The notes under the pieces are model-generated. The model was not told the DNA's origin and searched no databases. It worked only from the letters and a program-made list of their open reading frames with translations. This document shows positions 21,001-63,067 of a stretch of 64,000 bases of DNA, piece by piece. The position numbers were made by a program, and so were the translations under genes. Within the stretch, counting starts at the first letter, position 1. Each line of letters begins with the position of its first letter. The stretch is from a virus (taxonomy: Duplodnaviria; Caudoviricetes), in the IMG/VR virus record IMGVR_UViG_3300025120_010521. One strand, given 5' to 3'.

Positions 21001-21028
21001 ATCACCCTCCTTATGTTAAAAGTTAGGT

Positions 21029-21073
21029 GCGTTCCTTCGCTTATGCTACTTCCGTCCCATTGGGATGAACGAT
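21029..21073 (-). ncRNA. glnA RNA motif (glutamine-I riboswitch)
   Basis: AUCGUUC-A-UCCC(AAU)GGGA-CGGAAGUA-GC(AUAA)GC-GAAG-GAACGC: P1, P2, the GGAAGUA/GAAG E-loop and a short P3 match the known consensus. Confidence 0.85.
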
Positions 21074-23570: not shown

Positions 23571-24023
23571 TTAAATTAGACTTTGAAAAGTACCCTGTTT
23601 ATTAATTGTAAGTACTTGTTTTCGGTTATCGGCATTGTCTTTATATGATATATGAACCCAGCCACTACGTGGGTCCTTGCCATTATAAAATTCAAGTATT
23701 AGCTGATCGAAGTCTAAATTGTTTTTGATCCATTCTGCTAAATCTCTATTGCTGAGAGTTGGTACTTCTATATCTGCCGCTTCTCCAAAACAATGCTGTG
23801 ATTTTTTGGAACCACCAATTGCTGTGTTTAATTTTTTACATCTATAACCTGAATTAATTACTGTAGGACCAAACTTATCTCTAACAGGCTGTAATATTTC
23901 TTCTGCAAGTGTTTGCATTTTAGAAACAATATCAGGATCTTTTGGTAAGTTATCAATACCTTTACGTAATGCTGTTTGACTTTTGCAAAGTTCTGCTAGT
24001 GAAAAATTATTAGTGAGTTGCAT
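23571..24023 (-). CDS. Peptidase M15A (endolysin-like)
   Basis: NSGYRC, SQH..GEAAD, WVHISY. Confidence 0.9.
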   Translation of the reverse strand: MQLTNNFSLAELCKSQTALRKGIDNLPKDPDIVSKMQTLAEEILQPVRDKFGPTVINSGYRCKKLNTAIGGSKKSQHCFGEAADIEVPTLSNRDLAEWIKNNLDFDQLILEFYNGKDPRSGWVHISYKDNADNRKQVLTINKQGTFQSLI

Positions 24024-24456
24024 GATTATCTTTTCCTTCTACCATGTCTCCGTATGTTTTGTAACCTGTTTTTACACTTTCATCTTTTGGATAATATATT
24101 TCACAACCATTTTCACCATCTTCAGATACTTCAATTCTTACATCACGTTTAACATACTTTTGCTTAATTTCTTTATATAAATCATCTGCCATCATTTCAC
24201 ATGACTTATAATCAAGTTCAAGTGTTTTTTCTGCATATAGTTTTTCAAGCCATCTTTTAAACTGTATAAATTCAATATCTCTATCATCATGGAATACTTC
24301 AATAGCGACTTTAAAATGAAATATATGTCTATGTGGATATCCTAAAAAACTAACATCATATTCATCACCTGTTGCAAGTTTAGGGTCATCTAATGCCGCC
24401 GGATACTTATGTATTCCTTCTTTTCTAAATGTTACCCAAATTAGTTTTTTCATCAA
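24010..24456 (-). CDS. queD: QueD-like 6-carboxy-tetrahydropterin synthase (T-fold)
   Basis: EGIHKYP, HRH, DRDIEF, SCEMMA, EVSEDGENG; FolE/QueE/TGT in the same window. Confidence 0.75.
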   Translation of the reverse strand: MMKKLIWVTFRKEGIHKYPAALDDPKLATGDEYDVSFLGYPHRHIFHFKVAIEVFHDDRDIEFIQFKRWLEKLYAEKTLELDYKSCEMMADDLYKEIKQKYVKRDVRIEVSEDGENGCEIYYPKDESVKTGYKTYGDMVEGKDNHATH

Positions 24457-25584: not shown

Positions 25585-25989
25585 CTATATGTCGCCTTCT
25601 TTTCTATTTTCACTTTTGGCCACATTAAATTCACCTTCTGGATATCTGGCCATTAGCTTTTCTTTATTCATACTAATTACTTTGTTAGGATCAACACCAA
25701 GTGCCATACACCCTTGTGTCCAATACCACATAACATCACCAAGTTCTTTAATCATGTGTGTTTTAGTTTCTTCTGTTAGTGGCTTTCCTTGAAACACTAG
25801 TTTTTTTACAATTTCTGTAAACTCTCCTGATTCTGCTGATAATCCCATTGCCGCTGTTAGTAATCTTGGAACATCTTTATTTCCTAAATCATCTAACCTT
25901 TGTCTAAATGCTGTTGAATCTTTAGATTCGTTGCTGGTAACTTTATCCACAAACTGTGAATATTCTTTTAAATCAATCTCTGACATCAT
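25585..25989 (-). CDS. MazG-like nucleoside triphosphate pyrophosphohydrolase
   Basis: GLSAESGEFTEIVKK...KELGDVMWY...NKEKLMARY. Confidence 0.85.
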   Translation of the reverse strand: MMSEIDLKEYSQFVDKVTSNESKDSTAFRQRLDDLGNKDVPRLLTAAMGLSAESGEFTEIVKKLVFQGKPLTEETKTHMIKELGDVMWYWTQGCMALGVDPNKVISMNKEKLMARYPEGEFNVAKSENRKEGDI

Positions 25990-45964: not shown

Positions 45965-46333
45965 TCAAGTGGTCTTTTGAAGAAATCTTTCACTTAAATC
46001 TCTTAATTCATCGTGTGTAAATGAACTTTTCCAAGTATTTGCTTTGTGTGTTAATAGTTGAATATTGTCTACTGTATATCCTTTTGTTGGATCTATCCTA
46101 TCAATTGTACACGATTGTGGGTTACACCATTTATTTTGCCATTTTCCTCCTCCACGTACAAATTCTAAATCATCTCCAGTTATAGCACATTTCCAATTTT
46201 GTTTTTGGCCAATATTATATACATCAATTTTAGTTATTTCACTTGACCAAGATTTTTGGCCTCTGTTCTTAGCACGACTGATATTCTGTTGGATAAATTT
46301 TAATTTAGTACTATCCATATTAGCAATGTGCAA
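45965..46333 (-). CDS. HNH-like nuclease domain protein
   Basis: CAITG...TIDRIDPTKGYTVDNIQL...N..K. Confidence 0.65.
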   Translation of the reverse strand: MHIANMDSTKLKFIQQNISRAKNRGQKSWSSEITKIDVYNIGQKQNWKCAITGDDLEFVRGGGKWQNKWCNPQSCTIDRIDPTKGYTVDNIQLLTHKANTWKSSFTHDELRDLSERFLQKTT

Positions 46334-46940
46334 TAGGATCGTGTGTAAGATTAGACATCTGTTCTAATCTAGTTGTTGGATATTTGTCTCTGTTTTTAAG
46401 AAATTCTTCGTGATGTATCATTTTACCATTAACAAGGAATCCCCAATGATCACCTTCTGTTTTTTTACCCATAAAAAATATACTCCAACAAGGAATTTCA
46501 TTGCCATTTTCATCTTTGGCTAATTCTAAATAGTGTAAATCTTCTGCTTTTCTAAATCTTATACTGCCAGGACCCCTCCAAAATTTACCTTTAGGAGTAT
46601 GTTCCCAATATCCACCTTTTAATATTATAGCACCCCAATTCCAAGGATGACTATGTAGTATTGGTTCATCACCTAACATCACTTTGTGTAATGTAAAGTT
46701 AAAAGGAAAGTTTTTTCTATCTTTTAAAAACAAATAGTATCTCACAAGATACTCTCGTGTATTATCTCTGTTGTAAATAATTCTTTTTCTATCTTTAAAT
46801 AATGTTGATATCAATAACACTGCAAATACTCCCACACATGCAATAAACATAATTGTTGTTTTAAATACCTTGACAACTGTTTCTGCTACATCTACTTTTG
46901 AAACTATTTCTTCTGCTTTAAACCAAATATCTTTGATCAT
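46320..46940 (-). CDS. putative cupin-fold protein
   Basis: LHKV...LHSHPW...GGYWE...HYLEL His pattern. Confidence 0.5.
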   Translation of the reverse strand: MIKDIWFKAEEIVSKVDVAETVVKVFKTTIMFIACVGVFAVLLISTLFKDRKRIIYNRDNTREYLVRYYLFLKDRKNFPFNFTLHKVMLGDEPILHSHPWNWGAIILKGGYWEHTPKGKFWRGPGSIRFRKAEDLHYLELAKDENGNEIPCWSIFFMGKKTEGDHWGFLVNGKMIHHEEFLKNRDKYPTTRLEQMSNLTHDPIAHC

Positions 46941-47863
46941 GTTCCTATCGCATTACCAAAAAGATAAACGTGAACTCTCGCCGCGACATTGTAACCACGT
47001 TTGAAAGCCTTTTCGGCAACCTTTCCTGCACCTGCTGTTTGTTCTTCTTCTCTTGCACCTGTAGGCATAACCCATACTGGCCAATCAACACCTTGTGCTT
47101 TAAAAAGTTTAATTACTTCTTCCATTTCTTCCCACTCTCTATCATCAGGACCTACCACAAACTTTAATTGTCCTTTGCTAGAAAGTTTTCTATACTCTGC
47201 CACAATCTCAGGCTTGATTGCTTTTTCTCTTTTCTCACCGGATACTGTAAACAGTTTAGGACTACAACTAAAGAATATTTCTGTATCAATTCTGTTAACC
47301 CAATCAATAAATGGTTGTCTAAGTTTTTGTGTGCCATTAGTTTCAAATGTCATCGATCCAGGCAAGTTACCTTGTCTTTCAAGTTCTTCATATATGCCTA
47401 TGGTTGCTGTTTGTCCTGTAACCATTAATGGCTCTCCACCTGTGATACACAAATGTTGACTTTGTCCTGTTACTGGGTGTTTAAATAATCCTTGTGGATT
47501 ACTTTCATTCTTCATTATATCAACTATTTTGTTTGCCATCACAGTTGGTGTTTCTTGACCCATCAGCTCTTTAAACTTCTTAGCCCATGTGTAACTTGAA
47601 TCACAACCTTTGTCCCAAACAGGCAAGTCTTCAACTTTGTCTACACTAGATACATCAAAATTTTCAAATGGCAAATCATATGTGTCTGGGTTGGTTGGAT
47701 CTATTTGCCCAAACCCATTGCATTGCAAATTGCACAAGAAGAAACGTATCCATGCTGTTGGAACACCTGTGTAATGTCCTTCACCTTGAATACTGTGAAA
47801 TATTTCAGAATAATAGAACTTCTTTTCTACAGTTTTACCAAACTCATGTTGTGCTAATGCCAT
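46937..47863 (-). CDS. queE: QueE-like 7-carboxy-7-deazaguanine synthase (radical SAM)
   Basis: SEIFHSIQGEG..TG.P..W.RF, CNLQC...GCDS, ITGGEP, ETNG, SPKL. Confidence 0.85.
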   Translation of the reverse strand: MALAQHEFGKTVEKKFYYSEIFHSIQGEGHYTGVPTAWIRFFLCNLQCNGFGQIDPTNPDTYDLPFENFDVSSVDKVEDLPVWDKGCDSSYTWAKKFKELMGQETPTVMANKIVDIMKNESNPQGLFKHPVTGQSQHLCITGGEPLMVTGQTATIGIYEELERQGNLPGSMTFETNGTQKLRQPFIDWVNRIDTEIFFSCSPKLFTVSGEKREKAIKPEIVAEYRKLSSKGQLKFVVGPDDREWEEMEEVIKLFKAQGVDWPVWVMPTGAREEEQTAGAGKVAEKAFKRGYNVAARVHVYLFGNAIGT

Positions 47864-48489: not shown

Positions 48490-49002
48490 CTATATAGCCC
48501 ACCACTCTTCCCATGGATATACTATCCATTGAGGATGGTCGATTTTATTGATGAACTTTGATACATAATCAACATCACCAAATTTGCTTGGTTCATTTTC
48601 AACCAATACTGCAAATCTTATATTGTCTTCCCAATTAATTTCTGACTTGTTGTTTTTAATAATTTTACCACTGTTATTCCAATCTTGTTTAATCCAAGAT
48701 AATGTTTCACCGGTATCGTTAATGTCGTCAACGATTAAAATCTTTTTACCATCAAGGGCATCTTGGGCCATCCACTTATTTGATTCTGGTTGAACAGCAT
48801 GATCTCGTAATTTAATTTCTAATGTATGCATTGGCACTTCAAAGTAATGACTTATCATTGTTGCAGGAATTAATCCACCTCGTGTTAATCCTACTATGTA
48901 GTCTGGTTTAAATCCATCACCGTCAACTGCAATTTGTTGGATAACATCTGATGTCATATCTTCAATGTCTTGCCAACTATAATAAATTTTTTTATCTGCC
49001 AT
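48490..49002 (-). CDS. type I (purine-type) phosphoribosyltransferase
   Basis: VGLTRGGLIP, LIVDDINDTGET, WIVYPWE. Confidence 0.9.
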   Translation of the reverse strand: MADKKIYYSWQDIEDMTSDVIQQIAVDGDGFKPDYIVGLTRGGLIPATMISHYFEVPMHTLEIKLRDHAVQPESNKWMAQDALDGKKILIVDDINDTGETLSWIKQDWNNSGKIIKNNKSEINWEDNIRFAVLVENEPSKFGDVDYVSKFINKIDHPQWIVYPWEEWWAI

Positions 49003-50741: not shown

Positions 50742-51428
50742 CTACCTTGGAGCAAATTCTTGTTGTAATTTAATATTGTCCATAAACTCTTTTTTAGTTC
50801 CTTCAATATTTTTAAAATCACCTCTTAACACTGTGGTTTGTGTTAAACTACTGTGTGCTTTAATACCTCTGTTTTCACAGCAACCATGTGTTGCTTGTAC
50901 ATACACACCAACGTGTTCACTGCCTGTTTGCTTTTGAATTGCGTTAGCAATCATAACATTAAGTTCTTCTTGTAGTGTTCCACGTTTTGCACACCATTGT
51001 GCAATTCTTGTGTACTTGCTTAAACCTAATAGTTTAGGACCAGCAATGATACCAATGTATGCTACACCAGACACTGGCTGGTGATGATGTGAACAAACAC
51101 TTTTAAGTTCACTTCTTACAACAAGCATACCTTCATATCCATTTTCAATGTAGTTAGGAAATGCACTTGGATTAGGCATGTCTTCATATCTGCCACTCAT
51201 GATTTCGTTGATGTACATTTTTGCCATACGCCTTGCAGTATCTTTGCTGTTAGGATCTGTTTCAGTATCTATTAGTAAACTTTGTAGTACATTTTCAAAA
51301 GCAGGAACTGCCTCATCAATTAGTTGTTGTTTTTCACCTGGCTCAATATATTTAGAGATATTATCATTAGCCCAGTATCTTGTGTTGTTATCTTTTAGTC
51401 TCTGTAGAATTTTATCTTTTATTTTCAT
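50742..51428 (-). CDS. folE: GTP cyclohydrolase I; likely start 51428
   Basis: TARRMAKMY, CSHHHQP, GLSK..RI, RGTLQE, HGC...RG. Confidence 0.95.
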   Translation of the reverse strand: MKIKDKILQRLKDNNTRYWANDNISKYIEPGEKQQLIDEAVPAFENVLQSLLIDTETDPNSKDTARRMAKMYINEIMSGRYEDMPNPSAFPNYIENGYEGMLVVRSELKSVCSHHHQPVSGVAYIGIIAGPKLLGLSKYTRIAQWCAKRGTLQEELNVMIANAIQKQTGSEHVGVYVQATHGCCENRGIKAHSSLTQTTVLRGDFKNIEGTKKEFMDNIKLQQEFAPR

Positions 51429-51434
51429 TACCAT

Positions 51435-51461
51435 TCTCCGATGTTAAGGCAGTGGATTGCC
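51435..51461 (-). promoter_or_regulatory. candidate compact H-type pseudoknot / riboswitch in the folE leader
   Basis: GGCA-AUCCAC-UGCC-UUAACAU-CGGAGA; loop UCC can pair with the SD GGA. Confidence 0.45.
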
Positions 51462-51511
51462 GTTAATATTTCTTATTATAACAATTTTGTTTTGAAAATG
51501 CAAGTATTTTT

Positions 51512-62992: not shown

Positions 62993-63067
62993 TGGAGCGG
63001 GTAAAGGGGTTCGAACCCTTGACCTATTCGTTGGCAACGAATCGCTCTACCACTGAGCTACACCCGC
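62993..63067 (-). tRNA. tRNA-Gly (GCC), CCA encoded
   Basis: GCGGGTG TA GCTC AGTGGTA GAGC G ATTCG TTGCCAA CGAAT AGGTC AAGGG TTCGAAC CCCTT TACCCGC T CCA; own TTGACA-N17-TATTAT promoter. Confidence 0.97.

Follow-up and report, generated by a model that had tools for sequence, protein, structure and literature searches.

A stretch of 64,000 nucleotides from a virus of the Caudoviricetes (Duplodnaviria; IMG/VR record IMGVR_UViG_3300025120_010521), here called the window, carries on its minus strand a gene for GTP cyclohydrolase I (folE) with a leader of 40 bases, and the question raised by this locus is whether so short an RNA may regulate the gene that it precedes and what it might recognize. 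The preliminary description, made from the sequence, had proposed there a preQ1-I-like mini-riboswitch composed of a stem (P1), a loop, a single-stranded tail and the Shine-Dalgarno (SD) sequence. In this study, we report that the motif recurs in related phages in single copy and exclusively at folE, that its stem covaries, and that it is accompanied by genes of a 7-deazaguanine pathway. Judged from sequence comparison and by analogy, the leader would be a cis-acting regulatory RNA occupying essentially the entire 5' untranslated region (UTR), and we give about even chances to its being a ligand-sensing riboswitch that turns translation of folE off. The element is absent from Rfam 15 and looks like an undescribed miniature riboswitch; no published description of the motif was found in the open-access literature searched.

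All the sequence features listed in the preliminary description (the −10 box, the stem GGCA/UGCC, the loop AUCCAC, the tail and the SD sequence) were located on the minus strand where it had placed them. The features of the leader and its gene are as follows.

51498–51503, minus strand: −35-like hexamer TTGCAT, with 3/6 matches to TTGACA and a 17-nt spacer to the −10 box.
51475–51483, minus strand: extended −10 element TGtTATAAT (TATAAT at 51480–51475, TG at 51483–51482).
51458–51461, minus strand: 5' strand of P1, GGCA; compensatory changes at all four pairs.
51452–51457, minus strand: loop AUCCAC; UCC (51456–51454) is the proposed 5' strand of a second helix (P2) and A51453 the sole variable loop position.
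51448–51451, minus strand: 3' strand of P1, UGCC, pairing with GGCA (51461–51458), with covariation.
51440–51447, minus strand: tail (L3) UUAACAUC, variable in length beside P1 and with a conserved UAAC(A)UC on the SD side (alignments A2 and A3).
51436–51439, minus strand: SD sequence GGAG, invariant in the main type of leader; GGA (51439–51437) is the proposed 3' strand of P2, which would pair with the loop UCC.
51426–51428, minus strand: ATG, probably the start codon of folE, located 7 nt downstream of GGAG; the proteins of relatives align from the same Met.
50742–51428, minus strand: folE, GTP cyclohydrolase I (PF01227, E = 2e-38; phrog_2197; NCBIfam FolE models, E = 3e-39, below their cut-offs).

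In the window, 13 nt separate TATAAT from P1, and the position of the transcript start would be that suggested by the promoter elements. The TTGCAT/TATAAT pair was not listed by the promoter consensus scan, in which the −35 hexamer fell below the threshold. The proposal that the motif forms the whole 5' UTR of folE agrees with the 156 leader contexts collected, in which −10-like hexamers mostly end 3–13 nt before P1. An in-frame upstream ATG is found at 51434–51432, just 1 nt past GGAG; the true start is probably at 51428, because its 7-nt spacing from GGAG is typical of relatives (5–10 nt, mostly 6–7) and its Met is the equivalent one. The core of the element comprises approximately 25–26 nt.

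The preliminary description had named the absence of the motif from the folE leaders of other phages among the grounds for refuting its proposal, and the motif was clearly kept there, with compensatory changes and specifically at folE. Each scan of the collections gave up to 80–120 matches, and the locus and contig counts reported here are lower bounds. The first FolE-anchored search of IMG/VR retrieved at least 80 loci with a protein identity of 69–88%, with which two further FolE-anchored searches agreed. Of the at least 240 loci anchored in this way, most had the motif immediately before folE, and the element is present before folE in hundreds, at least, of related IMG/VR contigs. At least 60 distinct cores and at least 156 distinct contexts were collected. 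Their consensus consists of a stem of 3–4 bp, the loop AUCCNC, a linker ending in UAAC(A)UC whose length differs near the stem, GGAG, 5–10 nt and the start codon. The loop was AUCC(A/U/C)C in 154 of the 156 contexts, and its final base was C in every one, preceded by A in 100, by U in 52 and by C in 4. TTG is the start codon of roughly half of the folE genes that have the motif (79 TTG and 73 ATG, n = 152). In addition, a promoter of the form TTGACA-N4/5-CCTAAATA-N-TATAAT was strongly conserved approximately 20–60 nt upstream of the motif in 77/156 contexts (L001–L364); that of the window differs, with TTGCAT and without the CCTAAATA box.

Changes on both sides were found at all four pairs of P1, in a model-based alignment of 53 distinct sequences and also in a clean alignment of 17. 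The covariation score of the 53 sequences was 0.465 compared with 0.084 in shuffles, none of 500 of which reached it, and when the partner strand was slid, pairing was 24–52% instead of the 96.5% of the true register. The same helix was predicted independently by RNAalifold. The stems seen were GGCA/UGCC, AGAC/GUCU, GGUC/GACC, CGAC/GUCG, CCCA/UGGG, UGUC/GACA, UGUG/CACA, AGGG/CCCU and GGCG/CGCC; each of the inner three pairs uses 2–4 pair types, and at pair 3, at least 49 changes of state were counted along the FolE tree. Since some of the sets had been filtered by stem, a recount was made free of that filter, and the inner three pairs were all complementary in 59 of the 60 distinct cores before a FolE-like open reading frame (ORF), where approximately 5% would be expected by chance; the sixtieth was a mis-registration of the regular expression. 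The outermost pair holds in about four-fifths of the cores. U-G wobbles are found in P1 (e.g., in L081), and therefore the stem fits an RNA of the sense strand rather than DNA.

The association with folE is exclusive. With filters off, the covariance model of the motif gave a sole hit in the window, the folE leader (43.6 bits, E = 1e-12), the next best candidate reaching 7.9 bits, and across loci it gave one match per locus, always 5' of folE. Five whole phage records (146–518 kb) contained exactly one strong match apiece; the weaker matches in them were inspected and were not the motif. In a pattern scan of IMG/VR that was blind to genes, nearly all the matches bearing the stem were followed by FolE; among the exceptions, L171 was a chance match and in L084, L176, and L194 the next gene was hidden by the contig end or by the ORF call. 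The matches without the stem came from unrelated contexts, most of them GC-rich. In three loci, an ORF of 129–132 aa with no Pfam or PHROG match stands between the motif and folE (L145:548-937; L155:1892-2281, minus strand; L200:1479-1877), and there the element is predicted to head a two-gene operon. A scan of the cellular genomes of GTDB with a 22-nt pattern gave no genuine instance among the at least 120 matches listed; the six listed matches with a complementary stem are as many as chance would give, and each was located in high-GC DNA that lacked a start codon. The structural and genetic traits generally expected of a riboswitch are found here: a covarying structured element in the 5' UTR, association with the genes of one pathway, and an SD sequence inside the element, which is unpaired in the minimum free energy (MFE) fold.

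These comparative data decide on the simplest alternative, namely a chance hairpin or a weak terminator of the plus strand. It is true that a consensus scan flags 51448–51461 as terminator-like on that strand and that, in single-sequence folding, the window leader had an MFE of −5.4 kcal/mol with z = −0.05 relative to shuffles, an unremarkable value, so that its significance rests on the comparison across relatives. However, the genes around the element are all on the minus strand, the conserved tail and the SD sequence are on the minus-strand side only, the stem has only 4 bp with a poor T-run, and the covarying motif is present in hundreds of contigs. This alternative is excluded by the comparative data, and the probability that we leave to it is negligible.

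Conservation is not confined to the stem, since at least ten unpaired positions are invariant although the FolE proteins are only 40–88% identical to that of the window. Dense invariance of an unpaired loop and tail is the pattern of ligand pockets and was therefore counted in favor of a riboswitch. It also bears on a different possibility, a constitutive 5' hairpin or pseudoknot that would set mRNA stability or a fixed low level of FolE translation, for instance together with TTG starts, independently of any ligand. 5'-terminal hairpins protect mRNAs, the element would lie at or a few nt from the 5' end, and half of the folE genes use TTG. Nevertheless, a stabilizing hairpin needs pairing only and would not explain the invariant unpaired bases, and the element is used by no other gene in the window or in the five large records. 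We consider such a constitutive structure improbable, with a small share of the total probability.

In the riboswitch explanation that we favor, the loop UCC would pair with GGA of the SD sequence to form P2, and the RNA would adopt an H-type pseudoknot in which the linker runs along P1. A guanine-like small molecule would stack between P1 and P2, where the invariant C just 5' of the second strand of P1, C51452, would recognize it; the proposed roles of this and the other loop bases are taken from preQ1-I (PMC11625349; PMC10622847). Binding would stabilize UCC:GGA, sequester the SD sequence and block the 30S subunit, and less FolE would be made, as in feedback repression. Plausible ligands would be the products of the phage FolE/QueD/QueE/DpdL route, that is, 7-deazaguanine, 7-carboxy-7-deazaguanine (CDG), or preQ0. 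It must be noted that we infer the P2 pairing, ligand binding, the identity of the ligand and the direction of regulation.

The UCC:GGA pairing is possible in 154/156 contexts but is invariant in the main type of leader, and the informative cases are rare. In leaders of the L058 type (loop AUACCUAC, tail ..CAUA (..CAUAAGGA), SD AGGA; at least 8 instances, all before folE) and of the L216 type (loop ACACCCUC, SD AGGA), the loop CCU pairs with AGG, and the U-A pair shifts across the two C-G pairs along with the A beside GG. In L020, the loop UUUCGC retains a UUC:GGA pairing by means of a wobble. These three rare types are compatible with pairing between the loop and the SD sequence and offer suggestive support from three lineages. 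A second relation within the leader links the top pair of P1 to the length of the linker: an A-U top pair was always accompanied by ..ACAUC (49 leaders) and a C-G or G-C top pair always by ..ACUC (99 leaders), which makes 148/148. The coupled sites are columns 9/16 and 31 of alignment A3, corresponding to 51458/51451 and 51442 in the window. On the FolE tree, 17/17 independent contrasts were in the same direction (p = 1.5e-5), and the leader type switches at least 17–31 times relative to that tree. The coupling fits a contact of the linker with the top of P1; alternatively, it could result from exchange of the whole 30-nt leader by recombination.

Several observations weigh against the riboswitch explanation. 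P2 is invariant in the main type and therefore shows no covariation, and the leaders L064 (loop ACCCAC) and L066 (loop ACACAC) weaken or break it. P1 and P2 together have just 6–7 bp, and with a fold that, as indicated above, is weak when the leader is taken alone, any function would therefore need tertiary contacts, a ligand or a protein. The hairpin has been lost in some related folE leaders (L289, L338, L339, and others), in which just ..AUCGGAG precedes the start, and other related leaders are plain AGGAG; therefore, in this minority of folE genes the motif has been lost repeatedly and is dispensable. Among cultured phages, the nearest three (Phosso, RHph_I1_18, and Vibrio phage 2.275.O; FolE 53–61% identical) also lack it; it is likewise absent from Cellulophaga phage phiST, and the search brought up no isolate with the motif. 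The bases with which preQ1 makes contact in preQ1-I riboswitches are different here (A for U in loop L1, C for A before P2), and the analogy may not reach the binding pocket. Finally, protein operators classically take this same form, a short hairpin whose loop is conserved.

This last point introduces the rival in which a phage or host protein, either FolE itself or a dedicated repressor, would grip the loop and the tail, cover the SD sequence and autoregulate FolE. Operators of coat proteins and of T4 gp32, gp43, and RegA repress translation in this manner, and the element resembles phage translational operators (MS2 and Qbeta coat protein hairpins, the T4 gene 32 pseudoknot, RegA sites) in its short stem and its invariant loop at or beside the ribosome-binding site (RBS). 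The covarying stem beside the SD sequence, a P2 without covariation and a fold that is weak alone all agree with an operator of this kind. However, those operators bind known proteins, RegA acting on many genes, whereas the folE element is single-copy and has an additional conserved single-stranded tail. With one copy per genome of 146–518 kb, and at folE only, a general repressor like RegA is unlikely, and to our knowledge no RNA-binding activity has been attributed to GTP cyclohydrolase I. The conserved tail of 7–8 nt, the complementarity between the loop and the SD sequence and the register-shifted variants are more simply explained by a pseudoknot, and the tight coupling of the P1 top pair with linker length suggests an intramolecular contact. 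We regard the protein operator as unlikely, although it retains appreciable weight.

With respect to known riboswitches, an Rfam scan of the whole window at the gathering thresholds gave only a glutamine riboswitch and a tRNA. The former, an aptamer of RF01739 at 21026–21073 (minus strand; 56.9 bits; gathering score, 35), would be the second riboswitch of the window and is a known one; the tRNA gene (RF00005; 71.7 bits) is at 62996–63067 on the minus strand. The PreQ1 model of Rfam gave no match at E ≤ 10 in the 2 kb or in the 71 nt around the motif, nor did it match the L058 variant. The search with the preQ1 and folE/tetrahydrofolate-II (THF-II) models, which the preliminary description had suggested as a check, was thus negative in the 2 kb and the 71 nt, a result that is uninformative for preQ1-I of type III. 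Indeed, the validated type III leader of Escherichia coli K-12 yhhQ (L493:9170-9215) was likewise unmatched by Rfam 15 at E ≤ 10, also when the search was narrowed to 76 nt. Therefore, the negative result excludes preQ1-I of types I and II and not a relative of type III, and screens based on Rfam will miss preQ1-I type III.

In preQ1-I, the 3' strand of P1 is preceded by AC (types II and III) or UC (type I), the C being the specificity base (PMC11625349). In type III, the loop CCU pairs with AGG of the SD sequence, and the linker is variable at first and then conserved just ahead of P2 (PMC11625349; PMC10622847). The L3 of preQ1-I has conserved adenines right before P2, the last of which contacts the ligand, and U residues are found in L1 (PMC10622847). 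The resemblance to preQ1-I claimed in the preliminary description was borne out for the C located 5' of the P1 3' strand (last in the loop, with A or U, rarely C, before it), for the complementarity of the loop to the SD sequence and for an L3 that is first variable and then conserved. It failed for the A-rich L3 ending in A and for the U residues of L1, since here the end of L3 is AAC(A)UC, GGA is preceded by an invariant C, and a single invariant A makes up L1. As in preQ1-I there is a P1 helix with covariation, which at 3–4 bp is shorter than the usual 5 bp, and the gene association is also of the expected kind, folE being found in a lineage with QueD-like, QueE-like, and DpdL-like genes.

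Like type III preQ1-I (E. coli yhhQ; PMC10622847; PMC11625349), the element has a very small H-type layout at the RBS, the phage pseudoknot being a predicted one, and a link to 7-deazaguanines. In type III, which acts on translation, two loop C pair with two SD G and the linker is variable near P1 and conserved before P2, which the phage element would parallel. The differences are nonetheless several: the loop has 6 nt (AUCCNC) in the phage element and 9 nt (UUCCCUCAC) in type III; L1 is a single A instead of UUC; the U-A pair of P2 is distal (UCC:GGA) instead of proximal (CCU:AGG); a C stands before P2 in place of the preQ1-contacting A, with a linker UAAC(A)UC in place of an A run; P1 has 3–4 bp with a variable top pair, whereas that of type III has 5 bp with conserved G-C pairs; and the phage element occurs on phage contigs upstream of folE only, whereas type III is found in Pseudomonadota upstream of a transporter gene. 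With types I and II (RF00522; Bacillus subtilis, T. tengcongensis, C. antarcticum), it shares P1, a loop ending in (A/U)C and a tail that includes part of the SD sequence; the known structures of those types stack the ligand between P1 and P2, as is proposed for the phage element. It differs from them in its much shorter loop, in the lack of an A-rich L3 with a AAAAAACUA-like ending, in the bases of P2 and in the absence of a model match at E ≤ 10. The tail of the window leader begins with UUAACA, as does the L3 of the T. tengcongensis preQ1 riboswitch.

The element might then be a divergent member of preQ1-I, closest to type III and sensing preQ1 or preQ0, in which case the phage would merely be a host for a known riboswitch. 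The H-type layout, a predicted one in the phage element, the C before the 3' strand of P1 following A or U, the potential pairing with the SD sequence and the 7-deazaguanine genes are common to both, the L058 leaders (loop AUACCUAC, ..CAUAAGGA) approach the E. coli type III leader (loop UUCCCUCAC, ..AAAAAGG), and the Rfam negative carries no weight for that type. On the other hand, the loop has 6 nt where preQ1-I has about 9, L1 consists of one A and not of UU(C), P2 is UCC:GGA and not CCU:AGG, a C takes the place of the preQ1-contacting A, there is no conserved run of adenines, and no PreQ1 hit at E ≤ 10 was obtained with the 71 nt. Furthermore, no QueC was found above the cut-off in the five large relatives, which would not be expected to synthesize preQ0 or preQ1 of their own. 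We therefore judge membership of preQ1-I quite unlikely.

THF-II (the folE motif, RF03111) is an element of approximately 50–60 nt of Rhizobiales, in which a conserved asymmetric bulge connects P1 with P2 and the right shoulder of P1 contains the RBS (PMC6800512). Like THF-II, a putative repressor of translation responding to a product of the pathway, the phage element is immediately upstream of folE and includes the RBS. Unlike it, it consists of one hairpin of 3–4 bp (14 nt) and a tail, has no Rfam match and is found in a 7-deazaguanine and not in a folate context. From these comparisons, made on sequence and by analogy, we would set the element apart from preQ1-I and place it with the small H-type pseudoknot translational riboswitches as a variant not seen before, an assignment for which belief and doubt are roughly in balance.

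Two folE leaders of cultured phages that lack the motif deserve mention. That of Vibrio phage 2.275.O (MG592671.1; L367:3741-3771), which shows the pattern UC-CCGCA and AAAAAAACUA, gave a sub-threshold match to the Rfam PreQ1 model (12.5 bits, E = 1.8). Its FolE is 53% identical to that of the window, and its folE belongs to a QueF/YhhQ/QueC cluster, in which the annotations include QueF, a transporter like YhhQ, a "queuosine biosynthesis protein", and an aminohydrolase. This leader, equivalent in position, may itself be a genuine preQ1-I; a folE in a queuosine cluster with a weak PreQ1 match was counted in favor of reading the phage element as a riboswitch. The folE leader of Sinorhizobium phage Phosso (L365:3885-3950) has GUGG, a 13-nt loop ending in UC, CCAC, a long A-rich tail and UUAGGAG; it is preQ1-I-like by eye, yet it matched neither the motif model nor Rfam.

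The identity of a possible ligand depends on the pathway to which folE belongs. The deazaguanine context that the preliminary description had assumed is present, with QueE-like and DpdL-like genes in the window and a QueD-like gene in relatives.

46937–47863, minus strand: QueE-like radical SAM protein (7-carboxy-7-deazaguanine synthase family; phrog_2076 "QueE-like", E = 3e-54; the best NCBIfam hits are all QueE, below cut-off).
24010–24456, minus strand: DpdL-like T-fold protein (proposed CDG decarboxylase; 34% identity to CGPG_00067 of Cellulophaga phage phiST, E = 5e-19).

A QueE-like gene follows folE in 67/114 loci and flanks it in 5/5 large relatives, the match in G003 being weak (E = 1e-4). 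The DpdL-like protein of the window bears the signature LxxxHRHxF as LGYPHRHIF, which is characteristic of DpdL (PMC10516641); its gene is 27 kb from folE in the window and 2–5 kb upstream of folE in 5/5 large relatives, 4/5 of which also have a QueD-like gene. In these five relatives only sub-threshold hits to QueC were obtained, there was no match to the Pfam tRNA-guanine transglycosylase (TGT) family, and nothing points to QueF, at which no search was aimed. DpdA3 of phiST (CGPG_00065) had no BLAST-level match in the relatives or in the window, although a divergent DpdA could escape such a comparison. The combination of FolE, QueD, QueE, and DpdL without QueC has been linked to 7-deazaguanine in DNA by Cui et al. 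(PMC10516641). Therefore, the products of the pathway in this lineage would be CDG and probably 7-deazaguanine, not preQ1, and the candidate ligands are 7-deazaguanine, CDG, or preQ0.

Other genes of the neighborhood are worth recording. The window has a MazG-like nucleoside triphosphate pyrophosphatase gene at 25585–25989 (minus strand), and the 7-deazaguanine cluster of Cellulophaga phage phiST also has one. A cupin "cysteine dioxygenase"-like gene (phrog_4786; 46320–46940, minus strand) is the neighbor of the QueE-like gene, and the two are conserved together in 17 loci. A xanthine/hypoxanthine-guanine phosphoribosyltransferase-like gene is located at 48490–49002 (minus strand), with counterparts at L145:2450-2944 and L066:5299-5835, and is found near folE in 23 loci. 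Speculatively, with this gene and neither TGT nor DpdA detected, a deazapurine base might be made into a nucleotide by a salvage-type route and not be exchanged into DNA.

We know of no riboswitch described for 7-deazaguanine or CDG. Only tentatively, and with more doubt than confidence, do we propose that the element belongs to a new phage-specific riboswitch class, among the smallest known at approximately 25–26 nt, which would sense 7-deazaguanine or CDG and thereby throttle FolE, the first enzyme of a FolE/QueD/QueE/DpdL route supplying a base for DNA modification. If this were true, it would be a riboswitch carried by the virus rather than by its host, and one tied to the 7-deazaguanine bases that phages use against restriction. 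Its core would lie at the lower size limit for the selective recognition of a small molecule by a natural RNA, and comparison with preQ1-I would show how a binding pocket shrinks or is retargeted. The product of the DpdL branch is still unproven, and the RNA would offer a ready reporter for it, given that the bound compound would likely be the end product of the pathway. In any case, aquatic viromes contain the element in abundance (in IMG/VR, at least hundreds of contigs), and its addition to Rfam 15 would improve their annotation.

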